A stretch of DNA of 64,000 nucleotides from Felis catus (taxonomy: Eukaryota): contig NC_058368.1 of assembly GCF_018350175.1 (NCBI RefSeq), positions 87,546,001 to 87,610,000 of the forward strand, written 5' to 3'. Numbering within the stretch: the first letter of the stretch is position 1; every line of letters starts with the position of its first letter. The translations under genes were made by a program, and so were the position numbers. Under the pieces are notes generated by a model. It was not told the DNA's origin. It saw only the letters and a list, made by a program, of their open reading frames with translations, and searched no databases. Of the stretch, positions 3,862-17,627 are shown piece after piece.

Positions 3862-4366
3862 TGCTGCCTGAGACTGGGTTGACTTCTTGGTGGGTGTCAA
3901 GCCAAAAGACACAGCCAGGCCAGAATGGAAAAAAAGGGTTTTGCTTGTAACAAGTAAGGAGAACATTTGGGGTATTTCTCAAAGCAATGTTTCCCTGAAC
4001 AGCAAAATTGGGGAAGTTTTAAGCTGAGGGCACATACATATTCATGAAGGGGCTTGCACAATGGGGAATTCAACAAGCAACTGGGGGAAAAGTCATCTTG
4101 AGGTGACAGAGTCCACGTCAGAGTCATGGGACCAGCCAGGGTCAACATTAGTTCCCTGGCTTTCGTTGCTCTGGTATTGGAGTGCTTACAGGGGTTTACA
4201 TTTGCAAATGGAACTCAACAATGTGTGTCAGGTCAATCTTTACCTTTGAATCAGCACTGGGAGTTTACCACTGATTAGTTGTTGTTGTCCTTTGTGTGAT
4301 TAGGTTGTCCCCTGGCCTGGTAGTGGCTGCTGTTCTTATATTCCTTTGTTTCCTTGACATTAAGCA
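3862..4366 (-). mobile_element. Probable second LTR inserted in the ERV internal region
   Basis: LTR-like R/U5 organisation on the minus strand; GCAGTG occurs near both approximate ends. Confidence 0.45.
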
Positions 4367-4872: not shown

Positions 4873-7451
4873 TTAAAAACATATATATCAGGAATCTCAG
4901 AAGATAGCAGAGTAGGAGGATCCTAAGCTCACCTTGTCCCATGGATACACCTAGATAACAGCCACATCAATGCAACTAACCCAGACAATGACACAAAGAC
5001 TGACACAACTCTCTCCACAGTTAATCCTAGACAGGAGGTCACATCTAGAAGGGTAAGAGGGGTGGGAAAATGGTCAGGAATCAAACTCCCAGTGGGACAC
5101 CCCAATGTGGACAAGGGAGAGGAGCAGATCCCACACCAGGCACCCCAGACCCTTGTACTGGGAAGACAAGTCCTTGTAATATTTGGCTTTGAAAACCAGG
5201 CAGGGCTTAGCTGCATGAGTTTTTGAAGTCAGTAGGGCATAACTACAGGTACTTTAAAATTCATCATGCTTGGTACTAGGAGAGCTGGAGGACAATAGGA
5301 AACTGAGTCCTCACCCTTACAGAAAGTATAACAAACAACCTAGTGGAGAAACAGCATAGAAGCACCAGTTTGAAAAGTGCCTAGGGTATATGAGAAGGAG
5401 ATGTATTTACTAATCTCAGAACTTGTGCTGGAGGGGCATGGATTTTTAAGGGATTTCTCTAAGAATAAAAGAACTTGTAGGCACCATTTCCCTCCTCCCA
5501 CCCAGCCTAGATACCCAGACACCTGTAAGAACCAGCACCACACTTTCCACATAGTTCGCTAACACCACATATCCCATTCCACATTATCCATTAGATTCAC
5601 CCCATCCAACCTGCCCCACTCAGCAGGAGTCCTTCCAAAGCAGTACCTACTGCATCTCATTTCACAAGCAGCGCTAACAGTGACCAGCATCATTCCAAAG
5701 TGACTCTTGCCCTGGGGAAAGGGGAAGATAACCACATATACCAGTTTGATTATAGCCCCAGAAGTGGGCTGGGGATAGATATTTGACCTGATTGCCAGTC
5801 CCACCCACCAACAAAAATCTTACAAAGGACAGCACAAGAAAAGAGCCTTGTAGTTCAAGGTCACAGCAACCCTAGCAGATAGATTAGGGGCAGACATCTG
5901 TTCTGACTGTAGGTTCTGCTCATCACTAAAAGCCTCTCATAGGGCAATGCACAGAGAGAACCCTGCATTTTGATATGCCCACATATCCAGCAAAGGGGCT
6001 GAGGGAAGGTACCTGGTCTGACTCAACTATAAGCACAAGGTTGCCCCACAAGGTTGTCCTTGACAGCACAAGGACCAAACCCTGCCCACAACAGGCAAAG
6101 GGGTCATTGAAGCTAGCCGGACTAAAGGCAAACATGTCTCAACCACAACAGTAGGGCACATGCAGTTAGACATCCTTGAAGCAACTGGTTCTAGTGAACA
6201 AGGGACATTGCACTATAGGACACTACAGGACTTCTTCATAAGCCCACTACTTTCCTAGTATACAGATATACTATATCTAATCTTAATATACTACAGGTCT
6301 TCTACTACAGGATATCCTAATATACTACAGGACTTCTTCATAAGTCCACTAATTTCCTAATATATAGAAATAGAGAATGAGACAAAATGAGGAGACAGAA
6401 GAATATATCCCAAAAGAAAGATCAGGACAAAATAACAGAAAAAAAAAAGATAAATGAAAGGGAGATAACTACATGTCTGATAGAGAATTCAAAGTAATGA
6501 ATAAAAATAAAGATAAAACTAAAGGGGGATGTCATAAAGAAATTCACTGGACTTGAGAAAAACAAGGGAGGACATCAATGAGACCTTCAACAAAGACATA
6601 GAAATTATAAAAACAGAACCAATCAGAAGTGAAGAACTCAATAACTGAAGTCAAAAATACCTAGAAGGAATAAATAATAGACTACAGAAAGCAGAAGAAT
6701 GGATCAGGGACCTGGAAAACAGTAATGGAAGGCAATCAAGCCGAACAGCAAAAAGAAAGACTAATAAATGAGAATAGGTTAAGGGAACTCAGTGACACCA
6801 TCAAGTATAAAAACATTTTCATTGTAAAGATCCCAGGAGAAGAGAGAGAAAATGGGGGCATAAAATCTATTTGAAGAAATCATACCTGAAATTTCCCTAA
6901 TCTGGGGAAGGAAACACACATGCAGATCCAGGAAGCACAGAGAGCCCCCAACAAATTCAACCCAATGAGATTTACATCAGGACACAGAATAATTAAAATG
7001 TCAAAAAATAATGATAAAGAGACAAGAAAGCAGCAAGAGACAAGAAAGGAATATATATAAGAAAACCTCATAAAGCTATCAGCTGATTTTTCAGCAGAAA
7101 GTTTTCAGGCCAGAAGTGAATGGTCTGATATATTCAAAATGCTAAAAGGAAAAAAAAAAAACCCTGCAGCCAAAGATATTCTATCCAGCAAGGTCACCAT
7201 TCATAATAGAAGGAGAAATAAAGAATTTCCCAGACAAAAGTTAAAGGAGTTTATCACCACTAAACCAGCCTTACAAGAAATGTTAAAGGGAATTCTGTGG
7301 AAAGAGAAGGAGTACAAAAACTAATAAAAGAAAAAAGTTCACAGATAAATACAAACATAATAAAAGTAATAGGTTAATATATTTAAAAAACAGTACAGAA
7401 GATAAAGCACAAAAGCAGTAAATGGACTGTATCTATAAAAATTAGTCAATG

Positions 7452-7578: not shown

Positions 7579-7800
7579 AAAATATTAGTCAAGGAAATCA
7601 CAAAAGGATGTAAAGTATGGCATAATATATGTAGTGTAGGAATGTGTAGGAATGTGTAGGAAGTGTAGGAATAAAAATTTAGCACTTCTAGAATGGGTTC
7701 AAACTTAAGTGACTACCTTAATATAGACTGCTATATACATAAAATGTTATACATCAACCTAATACTAGCCACAAATCAAAAACTTGTAAAGATATACAAA

Positions 7801-7913
7801 AATAAAAAGAAAAGAAAGAAAAGAAAAGAAAAAAGAAAAGAAAAGGAGAGGAGAGGAGAGGAAAGGAAAGGAAAGGAAAGGAAAGGAAAGGAAAGGAAAA
7901 AAAGGAAAGGAAA
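7801..7913. repeat. (GAAAA/GAAAG)n microsatellite
   Basis: Direct repeat seen in sequence. Confidence 0.9.
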
Positions 7914-8108
7914 ATATCCAAGCATATCACTGAAGAAAGCAATCAAATGGTAAGGGAAGACAGCAAGAGAAGAAACAGAGAACTACAAAAAGGATTGTAA
8001 AACAAGTAACAAGATGACAATAAGTACCTAACTACCAATAATTACTTGAGTCAAAATGGACTAAGTGCCCCATTCAAAACACATAGGGTGACTGAATGGA
8101 TAAAAAAG

Positions 8109-8494
8109 TGTAGAGAGATAGGCTTAAAGGTGCAGAGATGAGAGAATTGGAAAGCAGGGGGCTAAGACTCTCCAGGAGCCGAATCATTGGCCCCTGGATC
8201 AAGCCTCTTTTATTTTTGCAAATTGTCTGATAACAGCAAGCACATACAACATTGTATTTGGCATCTTGACAGGCCCTGCACCTGCAGTGTATTCCATACT
8301 GGGTCATGAGTACATCTGGCACCAGACAAAACATTCTTATCACTGGCCTGGTGCCGGTATGATGTCCTTCTGAAGAGAATGTGCAGTCCCCGTGGCCTTC
8401 TGTCCTGGGAATGAAACAGCGTTCAGTTCCTTCCTGCTCCATCCCTTTCCTTCAGGACATTCTTACAGTGCCTCCAGCTTCTTGTTCTCCAATG
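8109..8494 (-). repeat. 3' LTR of the provirus
   Basis: Homologous to 15893-16275; adjacent to PPT at 8495-8507; AATAAA on the minus strand near 8210. Confidence 0.95.
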
Positions 8495-10425
8495 TCTCCC
8501 CCTTTTTGTTTGTATACAATGGACTGTAGGAGGACATTGCATAACCCAAATTGTCGGTTGGTTCGTTGACAGGCTCGTCGTCCCTGGCGCCAGACTGTAC
8601 ATGCAAAGATAAATACCCTGCATATTAATACAAACAGAATAGCAGTAGAGAAACTAAAAATTTTAACATGCTCTATAGGGTTTAATTTTCCCAATCCCTC
8701 TGATAAAATTTCTAAGATCTTAGAACTGGATAACATGTCCAGATTTGTTTTGGAAGTCTCCTATATCTCTGCTTGCAGATGTTGAATGTCCATAGACACA
8801 TTAAAATGTCCAAGCAAGTGTCTCTTAACATCATTCCGTGGCAATTTAGTGTTATTAAATGGTAACAGGGTTACACTTATTGATGTAGCATTCCAATCAC
8901 ATTTTAATGATATTTGTCTTTGTAGGCTCACTAATTGATTTCCCAGCAGTATCACAGCCTGTTGCAGGTCTGCAATTTCACTGGACAGTCTACTGTCAGT
9001 GTCCCATTGTGTCTTCCAAAGTCGGTGTGATTTCTCATGCCATTGTTGCATAAGTTGTACTGTCTGCACAGATTGGTACAACGAGACAGCTGCAGTAGCT
9101 GCGGCAGCAGTCACAGCAATAATGCCTCTAATAGCTGCGACAAGCATTCCAACAAATCATTGGGATCGATGAAGAATTCTCCATAGAGCATGGTCCATCA
9201 GATACATTTCTGGAGAATGTTGCCATGGTTGAGACATGTGAACTGGCAGACACAGGCTGGTGCAAGCTCTAAGTAAATATAAGCTTTTGGATGACATATT
9301 AAAGGGTATAGAATTGTTAAGACAAGTATATAATGAGCAGTAAACACAGGTTATAAGGGCCTCAGAATCATTCCAAACTATGTCCTTTTAATAGTACGTA
9401 TGGCAAATGGACACAAGCCCGTATGTACCGGATACTATTGACCATGAAGGATAAAGTAGAAATATTGCTGGAGCTGTTTTTATAATATGTGCCCTTCCAA
9501 TATGTGCTACCCTGGTGGAGGGCAGCAGTTAATTTCCAAATATGCTTTTGTAATGGTCCTTGCTGTAAATGAGGACTGGGTGCAGAAAATCCTGCACTGT
9601 GCCAAACAATTGAGCCATTAGCAGTGGTGCTGATAGTATGATTATGAACACACCATCGTAGATTTTGTAATGAATTTTTAAGGCGAGCTGAGCCCCTAGG
9701 GCTCCAATCAATGACACTTCCTTAGGAAGTATTTAAAAGAACTCGCCCTATCTCCCCTCTACATGCTTCCCAAGTCACCCATCCATTCCATTCTGACAAT
9801 GTACGAGTAGCACGAGATGGAAGCATTGGAAGAGTGTCATTAAGATTGGAGCCAATTGGGGAATGGGCTGATAGTAAGAAAATATGTTTGTGCTGGGTCC
9901 CATTTTTAATAATAGACAGCCATGCTTGAGGCTTACTTTTGAGGCAGTGTTTCCCATAACCAAAACATATAGGAGAACCTTCAATCCCTATAGTATAATT
10001 CATAACAGTTCCTTCTTCATTTGGCCTATGCAGTCCTCTGCTGTCAAATGGCCCAGGTGTCCATTCAGTGTCATTTGTATATACCGGCATGGGGGAGTCA
10101 TACCAATCTACGCCCTGATTGACAGGTGGATGAGGGATGTAAGCCCAGTAAGTATAGTTATCAGCACTTACCATAGTAGTGATAACCCCAACCATTGCAA
10201 GGAAAAGGTGAGCAGGGGTTTGTGGGCTGTGAGCCTGCATCAATATTTTTTCAACATCATGAATCAGCCTCTTAACTTGTCCCCAAGTAGGAGGTTGAGC
10301 AGTCCTAGTGCACCTCAGAAGAGGGTGTGGCACATTGGGCACAATTATTGGTTTCTGGATGGCATTTGGCGAAACTCTTCGACTAGTAGGGTCAGGTCAA
10401 ACCGAGGTTGCTTGGATCGGCTCAT
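8452..10425 (-). pseudogene. env: env (beta-type; long leader, SU, TM), disrupted
   Basis: PPTWGQVKRL...QTPAHLFLAM...NYTYWAYIPHPP; furin site RSQR mutated to RSQ*; fusion peptide IIAVTAAAATAAV; CDWN; KQKGG running into the LTR, all matching HML-2 Env organisation. Confidence 0.93.
8463..10425 (-). pseudogene. Putative spliced Rec-like accessory gene (coding exons 10425-10172 and 8594-8463)
   Basis: Donor ATG|GTAAGT at 10172/10171; acceptor TACAG|TCTGG at 8595/8594; second exon open for 43 aa plus TAA; positions equivalent to HML-2 rec. Confidence 0.55.
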
Positions 10426-13170
10426 GCCTGGGTTTCAAGCGGTGACTGGGTAACCACTGGTAGCCTTAATCTGTAGAGATATAAGCATACCCTCTGCCCC
10501 ACACAACAACCTCTCCCTTTTCCCAGTATCCCTTCTCATCTTTCCAATATACCGACTGATGAACAGTCTTCATTCTTTTGCTTGTGCCAGTGTACCTCAG
10601 CAGCAGGATATGTATGGGGTCCTTGTATGTCCAAGAAATGTAAAGTATATAAGGCACGATGTAATTGTTCCCGTGGTGTAAGTCTAAGTCCTTCTTCTTC
10701 TCCCCCTTTTTGTTTAATTAACATATTTTTAAGTACCTGATGAGTGTGTTCTATGATCCCTTGACCTTGAGGGTTATAGGGCATGCCAGTAAGATGAGTA
10801 ATTTGTCAGGCTGCAAAGAAATGGGCCACCTTATGAGATACATATCAGTTTTAATGCATTGTGGGATACCTAGAATTGTAAAGGTTTCAAGAAAATGAGC
10901 AGTAATGTGCATAGCCTTTTCTCCGGTACGTGCTATGGGCCCATATATATCCAGAGAAGGTATCCACAGTAACATGCACATAAGAGAGTTTACCAAAAGC
11001 AGGAATATGGCTAACTTCAGACTGCCAAAGTTCATTTGTCTGTAGTCCATGAGGATTCACTACAGAGATGTATGGAGCCACAGGGAGGGGGTTGCAACAA
11101 GGACAGGCACTATCAATGTCTTTTGACTGAGCGTGTGATATAGCGTGTCTATGGGCAAGTCCTTGAGCATTAGTATGGTGAAGCATATGCTCCTGTTGTG
11201 CCATTTGTAAGGTGCCTTGTAATAAGTCATCAGCAATGGAATTTCCTTAGGCTAATGGGCCAGGAAGGTTAGAATTACTGCGAATATGAGTGATATATGA
11301 AGGGTGTTGCCTATGCCGTATTAATTCTTGTAAATGTAAAAACAGATGATGTAATTCATTTTGTGGAATGATATGTGCAGTTTCAATGTTTAGGATGTTA
11401 ACCATACATATTGTGAATCTGTTACAGTATTGAAGGAGGCAGGTACAGAATGCAACAATTCTTTAATGGATGCTAATTCAGCCTTTTGGGTAGATGTATA
11501 GGGTGTCTTAGAAATAGGACCATGTATAGAAGCTTTACCATGACCATTTCCATCTGTAAAATATGTCTCAGCATCTGCCAAAGGCCAGTCTTGAATTATC
11601 TTTGACCAAATCCATGATGTAACCTTGAGAAATTACAATATCCCTTGGATAGTGATTGTCTAATTTCCCTATGTAATTGGACAAGGCTATTTGCCATTAT
11701 ATATTAGTTTGGTAAGCCACATCAATTTGTTGATATGATAAAGGAATAATTATAGAGGAGGGATCACCACCATTAAGCACATGTAATTGGGATCGGCCTC
11801 TCCAAATTATATTCCCAATTTTATCCAGATGTATGGTAAGAATTTTAGTGTCCTTATTTGGTAAAAACAGCCATTCAATGATTCCCCCATCCTGCTGTAA
11901 GACCGCAGTTGGAGAATGTGGACTAGGAAAAATCAATAATTGATTAGGAACATTAAGTCAAATACGAGTGAGATGACAATTCTGAATATGATTTTCAATC
12001 CATTGGAGGTCAGCCTCTGCCTTTTCTGTGAGGACCCTAGGGCTGTTAAGGTTAGGATCACCGGCTAATGTTTGAAAAAGATGAGATAAGGTTTAAGTCG
12101 GTATTCCCAAAACAGGTTGCAACCAATTTATATCTCCTAGTAACTTCTGAAAATTGTTTAAAGTTTTTTTTTTTTTAATTTTTTTTTCAACGTTTTTTTA
12201 ATTTATTTTTGGGACAGAGAGAGACAGAGCATGAACGGGGGAGGGGCAGAGAGAGAGGGAGACACAGAATCGGAAGCAGGCTCCAGGCTCTGAGCCATCA
12301 GCCCAGAGCCCGATGCGGGGCTCGAACTCACGGACCGCGAGATAGTGACCTGGCTGAAGTTGGACGCTTAACCAACTGCGCCACCCAGGCGCCCCTGTTT
12401 AAAGTTTTTAAATTATCTCAGAGTATTTGTACTTTTTGGGGAATGATTGTTGCCTTGTGAATTTTTGCACCAAGATAAAGGAAGGGATCTTGGGTTTGAA
12501 GATTATCCTCTGCTATTATTAGGCCATATTTGGGTAACAATAATCAAGCAGCCTGATAAAGATCTTCTACCGGTGTAGGGGTTTTTGCAGCAAAAAGATT
12601 ATCATCCATGTAATGGATAATCAATGCCTGTGGAAACTGAATGTGTAATTGTGAAAGCAGCTGATTAACAAAATGCTGACACATAGTGGGGCTATTAAGC
12701 ATACCTTGTGGAAACACTTTCTGTTGATAGCGTTTCACAGGAGCCATATGATTGTATGAAGGTACACAAAAAGCAAATGTTTCTCTATCATCTGGCTGTA
12801 TTAGAGTTGTGAAGAAAACAATCTTTTAAATCTACTATAATTAATGACTGGTTCTGAGGAATCATAGTAGGAGAAGGGAGCCCAGGTTGCAAAGCTCCCA
12901 CAGGTTGTGTAACCTCATTTACCTTTCTTAAGTCAGTCAACATTCTCCATTTTCCAGATTTTTTCTTTACCACAAACACAGGAGAATTCCATGGACTGGT
13001 GGACATTTCTACATGACCTGAATCCAATTGTTCTTGCACTAATTGCTTTAAAGCCTCTAATTTCTCCTTCAGAAGGGGCCACTGTTCCACCCACACCAAG
13101 GAAGATGTTAACCATTTTAATGGTAAAGCATAACGTTGTTCAGAAACAGTGGCCCTTACGCTAAATTTGG
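10397..13170 (-). pseudogene. pol: pol (RT, RNase H, integrase), disrupted
   Basis: [58 protein letters not shown]...CPCC zinc finger, [27 protein letters not shown] slippery heptamer at 13162-13168. Confidence 0.95.
12169..12395 (-). mobile_element. Young felid-type Can-SINE (SINEC_Fc-like) inserted in pol
   Basis: CpG-rich, close to consensus; TSD TGTTTAAAGTTTTT at 12155-12168 and 12396-12409. Confidence 0.97.
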
Positions 13171-15762: not shown

Positions 15763-15872
15763 ACTTACCCTGCAGAAATCCCGAAGGATGAGCTTCCCCG
15801 GCTCTAAAGGGATCTAAAGTTCCCTTCATTCCCTTGGCATTTCTTCAGCATGCTGCACACTTCCACCTTCAG

Positions 15873-15892: not shown

Positions 15893-16275
15893 TGTAGAGA
15901 GACAGGTCCTAAAGGTGCAGTGATGAGAGAATTGGAAAGCAGGGGGCTAAGACTCTCCAGGAGCTGAAGCATCGGTCCACTGGATCAAGCCTCTTTTATT
16001 TTTGCAAATTGTCTGATAACAGCAAGCACATACAACATAGTATTTGGCATCTTGACAGGTCCTGCACCTGCAGTGTATTCCATACTGGGTGGTGAGTACT
16101 TCTGACACCACACAAAACATTCTTGCCAGGCCTGGCACCAATATGATGTCCTTCTGGAGACAGCGAGAAGCCCTGGCAGCCTTCTATCCTGGGAATGAAA
16201 CTGCTTTCAGTTTCTTGCTGCTCTGTCCCTTTCTTTCAGGACATTCTTATGGTGCCTCCAGCTTGTTCTGCAACA
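15893..16275 (-). repeat. 5' LTR of the provirus
   Basis: TG...CA termini; homologous to 8109-8494. Confidence 0.95.
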
Positions 16276-16431
16276 AAAAAGCAAGACTGATCTGTATGCT
16301 GCCAACTAGAGACTATTTTCAGACCTAAAGGCTCATGCAGATTGAAAGGAAAGGGATGGAAAACATTTGCCAAGCAAATCAAAACAAAAAGAAAGCTGGG
16401 GTAGCAATGCTTATATCAAACAAAATAGATT

Positions 16432-16519
16432 ATATATTTTTTATTTTTAATTGTTTAATTTTTTTTAATTTTTTATTTTTGAGAGAGAGAGAGAGAGACA
16501 GAAAGTGAATGGAAGAAGG

Positions 16520-16553
<34 letters not shown>

Positions 16554-16678
16554 TTCGAAGCAGGTTCCAGGCTCCCAGCTGTCAGCACAGAGCCCAATGC
16601 AAGCCTCAAACTCACAAACTGAGATCATGACCTGAGCCAAAGTTGGACACTTAACTGACTGAGCCACCCAGGAACCCC
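16432..16678 (-). mobile_element. Can-SINE
   Basis: TSD AAACAAAATAGATT at 16418-16431 and 16680-16693. Confidence 0.93.
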
Positions 16679-17627
16679 TAAACAAAATAGATTTTAAAAC
16701 AAAGACTGTAATAAGAGACAAAGAAAGACACTACATAATCATAAAGACAAAAATCCAATAAGATATAACAACAGTAAATATTTATGCATCTAACATGGGA
16801 ACACCCAAATAGATAGGCAACTAATAGCAAACATAAAGGAAGAAATCAATAGTAATACAATAATAGTAAGGGACTTTAATACCCACTTTCATCAATGAAT
16901 AAATCATCCAGACAGGAAACCAACAAGAAAATGGTGGCTTTGAAAGCACATTGAACCAGGTAGATCTAACAGGTATACTCAGAAATTTTCATCCCCAAAC
17001 AGCAGAAAACTCATTCTTTTCAAGTGAACATCAAACATTTTCCAGAATAGATCATATGCTATTCCACAAAACTAGTCTCAATAAAGTAAAAAAGATTGAA
17101 ATAATGCCACATATCTTCTCTGACCACAATGGTAAGAAACTGGAAATCAACCACAAGAAAAATGTATGGAAAAAAAATACAAACATGGAGATTAAATAAT
17201 CTTCTACCAAATAGTGAATGGTTCAATCAAGAAATTTAAAAAATGCATGGAAACAAATAAAAATAAAAACACAATAATCCAAAAATCTTTGGGCTGCAAC
17301 AAAGCTGTTCTAAAATGGAAGATTATAGCAACACAAGTCTACCTAAAAAAGCAAGAAAAATCTCAAATAAGCAATTTTACCTTACCTTACACCTACAGGA
17401 ATTAGAGATTAAAAAAAAAAATAACAACAACAAAGTCAAAAATAAAATAAAATAAAATAAAATAAAATAAAATAAAGTCCAAAGCCAGAGGAAGAAGAGA
17501 AATAAATATTAGACCAGAAATGAATGAAATAGTTCATTATTTTCAAAAAAAGTTCAAGGAAACTAGGAACTAGTTCTTTCATAAGATCAACAAAATTGAT
17601 AAATCTTTAGCCAGACTCATAAAGAAA

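Follow-up and report, generated by a model that had tools for sequence, protein, structure and literature searches.

To our knowledge, no Rev-like system of betaretroviruses has been described other than Rec, Rem and Rej, and work on Rec has been confined to primate HML-2. The available portion of Ruggieri et al. 2009 (PMC2649029) gives the first exon of HML-2 Rec as Env amino acids 1-87, the Env signal peptide as 96 amino acids with its hydrophobic core at amino acids 76-90, the rec splice donor as lying at Env amino acids 85-87 and the acceptor at amino acids 651-655, and the nuclear localisation signal (NLS) and nuclear export signal (NES) of Rec as amino acids 13-20 and 54-60. A second spliced product, hel, keeps the last 140 bp of env and is the most abundant HML-2 isoform according to the available text of PMC13238051. 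The accessible part of PMC11379458 places the Rec response element (RcRE) of HML-2, 433 nt long, in a long terminal repeat (LTR) of 968 nt; it also describes sRec of SERV-K/MER11, Old World monkey relatives of HML-2, which in the macaque keeps the rec splice and has no export activity. Here we compare these systems with a locus of the domestic cat. The stretch of DNA analysed, which we call the window, comprises 64,000 nt of Felis catus (assembly GCF_018350175.1, contig NC_058368.1, positions 87,546,001 to 87,610,000), and it contains a minus-strand provirus of 8.2 kb (window 16275-8109; window coordinates are used throughout), which is betaretrovirus-like and has an HML-2-type env.

This provirus is, in our judgement, probably a decayed copy of a small and old carnivore family of HML-2-like endogenous retroviruses (ERVs) that possessed the four-site splicing plan of HML-2, with a rec-homologous spliced gene. 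The two sites that an earlier note on this DNA had proposed for a second intron of the rec type do exist; they are positionally homologous to the rec sites of HML-2, date back to the ancestor of the family, and are used in RNA of the window locus, where the host spliceosome still recognises them.

Splice sites and their counterparts in HML-2

The donors, the acceptors, the env ATG and the second-exon frame that the earlier note had listed are all present where it had placed them. They are given here one per line, a slash marking the splice point.

15763..15769, minus strand: SD1, the major 5' donor, AGG/GTAAGT; exon end at 15769, GT at 15768-15767, gag ATG at 15762-15760
10471..10481, minus strand: SA1, the env acceptor, TATCTCTACAG/A (...CTACAG); AG at 10472-10471
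10172..10425, minus strand: Env leader, the equivalent of rec exon 1; env ATG at 10425-10423, with PPTWGQVKRL and a hydrophobic core
10166..10174, minus strand: SD2, the rec-type donor, ATG/GTAAGT, in phase 0; exon end at 10172, GT at 10171-10170
8595..10171, minus strand: second intron of 1577 nt with GT..AG ends, holding most of the Env subunits SU (surface) and TM (transmembrane)
8594..8620, minus strand: SA2, the rec-type acceptor, ...TTTATCTTTGCATGTACAG/TCTGG (TGTACAG/TCTGG); AG at 8596-8595, first exon base at 8594
8463..8594, minus strand: exon-2 frame of 43 codons plus TAA, +1 relative to env; TAA at 8465-8463

The proposed plan would place SD1 before gag, SA1 before env, SD2 at the end of the signal-peptide core and SA2 at the start of the cytoplasmic tail. 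Removal of both introns in the ancestral virus would have given a small mRNA, whose open reading frame (ORF) would have run from the 85-codon Env leader, in phase 0, into a 43-codon exon in a frame other than that of env, and splicing from SD1 to SA2 would have given a hel-like RNA. The leader of the window copy has 254 nt from the ATG to the donor and is one base short near 10363 in comparison with all 10 other copies, which bears out the frameshift that had been suspected there; two of those copies (L008 and L009) have 255 nt, or 85 codons.

Homology of this leader with exon 1 of Rec, also claimed before, is supported by the Pfam family HERV-K_REC (PF15695), which matches the ORF at 10396-9722 at E 9e-7 and 29.3 bits, above the cut-off of 27.5, residues 27-79 of the ORF falling on profile positions 21-72 of 87. 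As the HML-2 reference for the leader alignment we used two unnamed HML-2-type fragments, P0062 and P0040, obtained in an exhaustive protein search, whose SU start equals that of the solved HERV-K Env chains. In these fragments MLLAALMIVSMVVSL fits the 15-residue core, and residue 87 is therefore the V preceding VS. The phmmer alignment sets the HML-2-type ..IVSMV/VS.. (V87/V88-S89) on ..ITTM/VS.. of the window, so that V87 falls on M75 of the window ORF and the V-S that follows falls on V76-S77, whose codons read GTAAGT. In the window and in the HML-2-type fragments alike, the Val with which the intron begins lies 38 residues from the invariant Trp of PTWxQ. The donor ATG/GTAAGT at 10172/10171 is found in phase 0, within the signal-peptide core and at the column of Env amino acids 85-87; its GTAAGT is spelled by the Val-Ser codons that close the core, and by the -3/-1 rule signal peptidase would be predicted to cleave after VSA, three codons downstream of the donor.

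The acceptor corresponds to that of HML-2 by position and frame, a comparison into which the letters of HML-2 DNA did not enter: AG/TCTGG lies 143 nt (47 codons) before the end of env and opens the +1 frame. It is located within the Thr-Val codons that start the Env cytoplasmic tail, with the AG inside the Val codon, in env phase 1. We take HML-2 Env to have about 699 residues, and if so, 47 codons from the end agrees with amino acids 651-655. The exon-2 frame (SGARDDEP...LEAL) is acidic, crosses the polypurine tract at 8505-8493 and ends about 30 nt into U3. Because all three frames are open there in the window copy, an open frame of 43 codons is weak evidence by itself. The sense strand of the 8165-nt provirus contains two GTAAGT, solely at SD1 and SD2, and about 2.4 would be expected from base composition; the number matches expectation and is therefore uninformative, and it is the placement that informs.

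Use of the sites in RNA

Four public runs (X1, X2, X3 and X24, with X2 and X3 from one study) were aligned to window positions 8300-10600. The predicted junction 10172/8594 was recovered in a single 385-nt contig of X2, at a depth of 9.95, which matches 10527-10172 (356 nt) with 0 mismatches, skips 1577 nt and continues at 8594, its shorter side being 29 nt. The skipped segment ends in CT..AC on the plus strand, which is GT..AG on the strand of the provirus. We assigned the contig to the window locus because no other genomic copy exceeds 88% identity to it. The join between the rec-type donor and acceptor is present in one of the four runs (X2), and the join between SD1 and SA2 (leader donor 15769 to 8594) in two of them, X2 at depth 44.6 and X3 at depth 7.2. 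The contigs of this second join match 8300-8595 with 1 (X2) and 0 (X3) mismatches, and their first 30 continuing letters are exactly those of window 15770-15799, in addition to the G at 15769. The SD1-SA2 join is the dominant form here, with 44.6 in X2 versus 9.95 for SD2-SA2. In the same run depth is 4-15 within the intron, 34 upstream and 104-144 downstream; it steps down at one exon border (104 at 8607, 4 at 8608) and up at the other (12 at 10147, 34 at 10148).

A junction of this kind could also come from an assembly chimera or from a DNA copy with a 1577-nt deletion, and a single contig with a 29-nt short side, from a run whose type is guessed, leaves room for such an artefact, short sides being flagged for caution by the alignment program. 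Nevertheless, we consider this explanation very improbable. First, the join falls exactly at the predicted GT..AG, with 1 letter common to both sides, and has a depth of about 10, and a k=31 unitig would be expected to end in an overhang of 29-30 nt at a branch into a shared exon. Second, the leader-to-8594 joins occur in the same runs. Third, the deletion is absent from all genomic copies: among the 11 donor-region and 11 acceptor-region places scored in the genome, none lacks 10171-8595, and the sole place with 100% identity is the window itself. Because no genomic copy lacks the intron, the join is not a DNA form.

Other joints were seen in these runs. In each of X2 and X3, one contig departs from the window at 10472 and goes on with 28 unrelated upstream letters, which are not those of the family leader; the X2 contig (record 16) has about 88% identity to the window and belongs to a related copy. 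These observations suggest that a sister copy joins an upstream exon to the env acceptor SA1, and use of SA1 by the window locus itself was not seen in the aligned runs. Coverage in the metatranscriptome run X1 is broad, as is typical of DNA carry-over, with no splice joints. Two joints in this run, at window 8760-9190 and 9715-9778, have extra letters between their sides and no GT..AG, and they are probably DNA-level deletion or insertion variants of other copies, not splicing.

Ancestry of the sites in the family

Our census of the family covered a genome of 2.43 Gb in 71 contigs; 12 loci were retrieved, and 11 copies bear env, including that of the window. Apart from the window, ten copies have the leader region and ten the acceptor region, and there they are 80-91% identical to it. 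Conservation of the splice sites across copies was checked in this set: the GT of SD2 is kept in 8 of 11 copies and the AG of SA2 in all 11. GTAAG is present at SD2 in 6 of 11 copies and the full GTAAGT in 3 of 11, the GT being lost in L004 and L007 (both AG) and in L006. The AG of SA1 is kept in 9 of 11 copies, and the GT of SD1 in 11 of the 12 copies that hold the region. Judged from the sequences of these copies, all four sites are ancestral to the family, and the pattern is that predicted by neutral decay from a four-site ancestor; retention of a site in the copies is uninformative on selection after integration.

It is important to consider whether a transcribed, decayed provirus might simply be spliced at fortuitous cryptic sites that had no ancestral role. 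The two GTAAGT of the sense strand are in line with what composition predicts, and aberrant splicing is frequent in old ERVs according to the available text of PMC13238051. On the other side, both sites are ancestral (8 of 11 and 11 of 11), the donor coincides codon for codon with that of HML-2 rec and the acceptor lies within a few codons of its counterpart, and the layout with two GTAAGT recurs in a contig of a cattle virus (L013, described below). Cryptic splicing is accordingly an explanation to which we give hardly any credence.

Five copies (L003, L004, L007, L010 and L011) stand together on contig C13 at 29.99-30.24 Mb. Lesions are shared within this group: L007, L010 and L011 have a 1-nt deletion of exon 2 in common, and L004 and L007 an identical change at the donor. 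From this the cluster looks like a segmental duplication of integrated proviruses and not a set of separate insertions.

Coding capacity of the spliced product

In 6 of 11 copies the exon-2 frame runs uninterrupted to one common stop column; in the other 5, frameshifting indels break it. Stops that arose by substitution are found in exon 2 in none of the 11 copies in the rec frame, in 7 of 11 in the env frame and in 3 of 11 in the third frame. We rejected these stop counts as evidence of selection: the env-frame stops are at CGA-type codons, and CpG decay explains them. Conservation of the second-exon frame, which the earlier note had put forward as a check, holds insofar as no copy has a substitution stop; it fails with respect to the indels in 5 of 11 copies, and no constraint could be measured. 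In the codon-phase test, diversity for the three phases was 0.133, 0.137 and 0.194, with 9, 7 and 14 informative sites of 43 per phase. The env control regions have hardly any excess at third positions, so most of the divergence is post-integration.

With respect to the leader, PPTWGQVKRLIHDVEKIL falls on the NES region in P0062 and P0040, a region that in Rec is leucine-rich and adjoins the conserved PTW(A/G)Q motif. It retains spaced hydrophobic residues and is by alignment a candidate NES. The Arg-rich NLS or RNA-binding motif, which the earlier note had already called weak, was not found: the translations of the 11 copies contain neither a counterpart of Rec amino acids 13-20 nor any Arg run.

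Weighing the case for a Rec-like protein

The claim that the family encoded a Rec-like gene stands in part. Its splice architecture is homologous to that of rec, but no Arg-rich motif, no detectable homology or constraint in exon 2, no response element in the folded stretch and no intact frame (0 of 11 copies) accompany it. The following points, from RNA, copies, protein and RNA structure, weigh against a rec-homologous spliced gene in this family. The junction is known from one contig of one run of guessed RNA status, with a short side of 29 nt; this contig is unspliced through SA1, and the doubly spliced mRNA of the locus (SD1-SA1 plus SD2-SA2) was not seen in the runs aligned. The SD2-SA2 joint was not seen in X3, and none of the joins were found among the 262 aligned contigs of X1 or in X24, a run of raw reads of which 4 aligned and which is uninformative. 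Of the 11 copies, five belong to a single 250-kb cluster and cannot count as independent. All 11 have an interrupted leader frame, and none could make the protein today. The 43-residue exon has no Pfam family at E <= 0.1, all three frames are largely open in the exon-2 stretch, and the codon-phase test favours the rec frame in direction, without being significant and confounded by CpG decay. Basic residues in the leader are only scattered (MSRSKQPR and LLRCTRT in the window). The fold of 8594-8190 (exon 2 plus U3-R) has z = -1.14 against shuffles, a weak negative since the copy is decayed, and an element of HML-2 size cannot fit, since the LTR has about 385 nt and the RcRE of HML-2 takes up 433 nt of one of 968 nt. 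Finally, the macaque sRec, as described in the accessible part of PMC11379458, is a precedent for a rec splice that persists with no export activity.

Several of these points would be expected if SD2 and SA2 had been conserved and used at the RNA level, for a hel-like RNA or for tuning of env mRNA, the leader being a signal peptide or a cleaved factor of the JSRV (Jaagsiekte sheep retrovirus) type and the spliced product being no Rec-like exporter. This applies to the missing Arg-rich motif, the unconstrained second exon, the lack of a structured element in the folded stretch and the example of SERV-K/MER11, and the dominance of the hel-like SD1-SA2 join in X2 (44.6 versus 9.95), as in HML-2, agrees with it too. 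However, in the family a leader homologous to Rec stays joined in phase 0 to an open frame (6 of 11 open, with no substitution stop), the homologous mRNA of HML-2 does encode an exporter, and hel uses SD1, so the donor SD2 is not needed for it. Taken together, we regard a role confined to RNA as unlikely, and we continue to favour a rec-homologous spliced gene. Whether its product acted like Rec or Rem, as a leader-derived and CRM1-dependent factor for the export or expression of unspliced viral RNA, is a narrower proposition, which we hold to be about as probable as its opposite.

Relatives outside the carnivores

The exhaustive protein search returned 343 proteins at E <= 1e-3, and the best 150 representatives were re-aligned. 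Named Env relatives annotated as 'endogenous retrovirus group K ... Env polyprotein-like' come from cetaceans (the representative P0002 has 48% identity), a bat, the guinea pig and marmot/ground squirrel; other named relatives are the Bovine retrovirus CH15 and the Bat faecal associated retrovirus 1. HERV-K_REC matches 13 of the 14 relatives scanned at E <= 0.1 and 3 of the 14 above threshold. In the re-alignment of the best 150, the junction is covered by 110 of 151 stretches, of which 64 have Val at the first intron codon and 43 have Ser at the second; this Val-Ser column comes from protein sequences and is suggestive only, Val being common in hydrophobic cores. Gln precedes the junction Val in many leaders (37 of 110), where the DNA would read CAG/GTN, and this column may hint at a widespread donor among Env leaders. 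A product fusing leader and exon 2 was not found among seven read of the best 150 representatives, one of them (P0148) being a deletion variant. A word-indexed protein search for longer relatives of the leader and SU gave 211 candidates, none of them at E <= 1e-5, and hence no named HML-2 Env or Rec record; a scan of metagenome DNA with a pattern from the tighter alignment A2 gave 11 pattern matches and no relative.

One related locus was identified in the scan of viral contigs. This IMG/VR contig of 7470 nt (L013) encodes an Env that agrees with the protein named Bovine retrovirus CH15 at 687 of 687 residues. Its sense strand has exactly two GTAAGT, at 130-135, with the gag ATG at 155, and at 5374-5379, where the Val-Ser codons at Env codon 126 spell it two codons before YTYWAY. 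A candidate acceptor, ATAG/TG at 6969-6971, lies in the Ile-Val pair that starts the tail, in the same env phase as SA2, and would add 6 codons. By its sequence, L013 suggests that this cattle virus, sampled recently, may have a rec-type intron that is not annotated. The available text of the CH15 description (PMC8686636) does not contain 'splice' or 'accessory', and our reading offers a concrete annotation hypothesis for a virus whose description omits splicing.

A used and positionally homologous rec splice in a carnivore ERV family would mean that the rec architecture predates, or extends beyond, the primate HML-2 radiation; a cattle betaretrovirus with this donor signature adds support for a wider and older rec layout. 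We propose, with some hesitation and leaning slightly against it, that the second intron of the rec type is not an invention of primate HML-2 but a layout ancestral to HML-2-like betaretroviruses as a pan-mammalian clade. If so, the clade would span carnivore ERVs of over 10 million years in age and a cattle virus sampled recently, the 'complex' organisation would be ancestral in it, and the second exon would be a freely evolving appendage of 6, 18, 43 or 62 codons, the leader carrying the function. The earlier description of the family as a candidate complex retrovirus lineage is fair, although the complexity is of the kind known from HML-2 and the mouse mammary tumour virus (MMTV) and not a new one. 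No description of such a gene in carnivore ERVs was found in the literature searched, as had been supposed, subscription-only papers lying outside that search. In the available part of a survey of felid ERVs (PMC4373062), class II elements are treated as pro-pol fragments only, and 'Rec' and 'accessory' do not occur.

Structure, placement and age of the provirus

The remaining features of the element are as follows.

8452..10425, minus strand: env, with HERV-K-type SU and TM; 2 frameshifts and 3 stops in this copy
15893..16275, minus strand: 5' LTR (TG...CA), a direct repeat with the 3' LTR
8109..8494, minus strand: 3' LTR, the repeat of the 5' LTR; AATAAA at 8214-8209
16281-16276 and 8108-8103: target-site duplication CTTTTT of 6 bp, flanking both LTR ends
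12168..12398, minus strand: insertion in pol resembling a short interspersed element (SINE); blast alignment break at provirus positions 3933-4163

Pfam matches and stop-to-stop frames identify gag (p10 and the C-terminal domain of p24), protease, reverse transcriptase, integrase and env (GP41 and HERV-K_env_2, the latter above threshold). The hallmarks of a class II betaretrovirus-like ERV (gag p10/p24, protease, reverse transcriptase, integrase and a beta-type Env) are all found among the Pfam matches; every gene is disrupted by stops and frameshifts. Among solved structures, the best relative of the capsid fragment is HERV-K Gag (6ssj, E 5e-17), and those of the Env SU and TM are HERV-K Env (9nnd/9mla, E 8e-24 and 1e-27). 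These matches, with those of Pfam, support the earlier identification of the element as a betaretrovirus-like provirus with an HML-2-type env. The protease ORF had no HERV-K match in the PDB, its nearest chains being in entries 3sqf and 1nso, which we take to be the protease of Mason-Pfizer monkey virus; because it had no such match, this ORF was left out of the family placement.

Over 364 aligned sites, the Kimura two-parameter distance between the LTRs of the window copy is 0.133 (the bounds used here, 16271-15907 versus 8493-8107, differ a little from those listed and were slightly narrower), and in eight other family copies it is 0.045-0.208 (a divergence of 4.5-21%). At typical mammalian neutral rates, the family is roughly ten to several tens of million years old. 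The joins also show that a provirus whose LTR divergence of 13% points to an age of tens of millions of years still gives correctly spliced subgenomic RNAs. Seven contigs of X1 part from the window at 8492, as expected for the edge of an LTR.

Several additional observations concern the element and its surroundings. The SINE-like element, of about 230 nt, occupies the site in pol in the window copy alone, and the same element turns up elsewhere in several sister loci. The primer binding site at 15890-15867 resembles that of L013, with 19 of 24 letters equal by hand count, and appears to be a decayed site of the same kind, presumably of the tRNA-Lys type. The provirus is flanked by low-complexity stretches, purine-rich (GAAA-like) and (TG)n, at 7675-8000 and 16430-16730.

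Comparison with known systems

The closest described system is rec of HML-2. Both have a homologous leader, a donor in phase 0 at the same column, an acceptor about 140 nt before the env stop and a second exon out of the env frame, and the gag and env of the window provirus are overall most like those of HERV-K. The differences are that the host is here a carnivore and not a primate, that the leader has 85 codons instead of 87 and no motif of the RRRR type, that the second exon has 43 codons and reaches into U3 as opposed to 18, that the LTR has about 385 nt versus 968 nt, and that all copies are broken here. The 1.5-kb hel of HML-2, spliced from SD1 to SA2, has its equivalent in the join seen in two runs, which is likewise the most abundant form; here it is known from contigs.

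The sRec of SERV-K/MER11 also has a rec splice with a longer and unrelated second exon, of 62 amino acids and partly derived from the LTR, and provides a precedent for a variable exon 2. Its second exon arose by recombination with HML-8, whereas that of the cat family is its own env tail and U3 read out of frame. The cattle virus CH15 (L013) shares the Env type with a PTWGQ leader, the layout of two GTAAGT and a candidate AG/TG in the same env phase; unlike the cat provirus, it is intact and recently sampled, and its predicted second exon has merely 6 codons.

Rem of MMTV and Rej of JSRV are more distant parallels, in which a long betaretroviral Env leader likewise carries a regulatory function; their leaders may be homologous to that of the window. 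According to papers on these viruses, the MMTV mRNA is doubly spliced, but the exons of Rem remain in the env frame and the whole signal peptide is kept, and JSRV needs no second splice. Considered side by side, the independent lineages show which parts of the rec-type system are conserved, namely the leader, the PTWGQ/NES region and both splice sites, and which are free to vary, namely the Arg-rich motif, the length and sequence of exon 2 and the size of the LTR.

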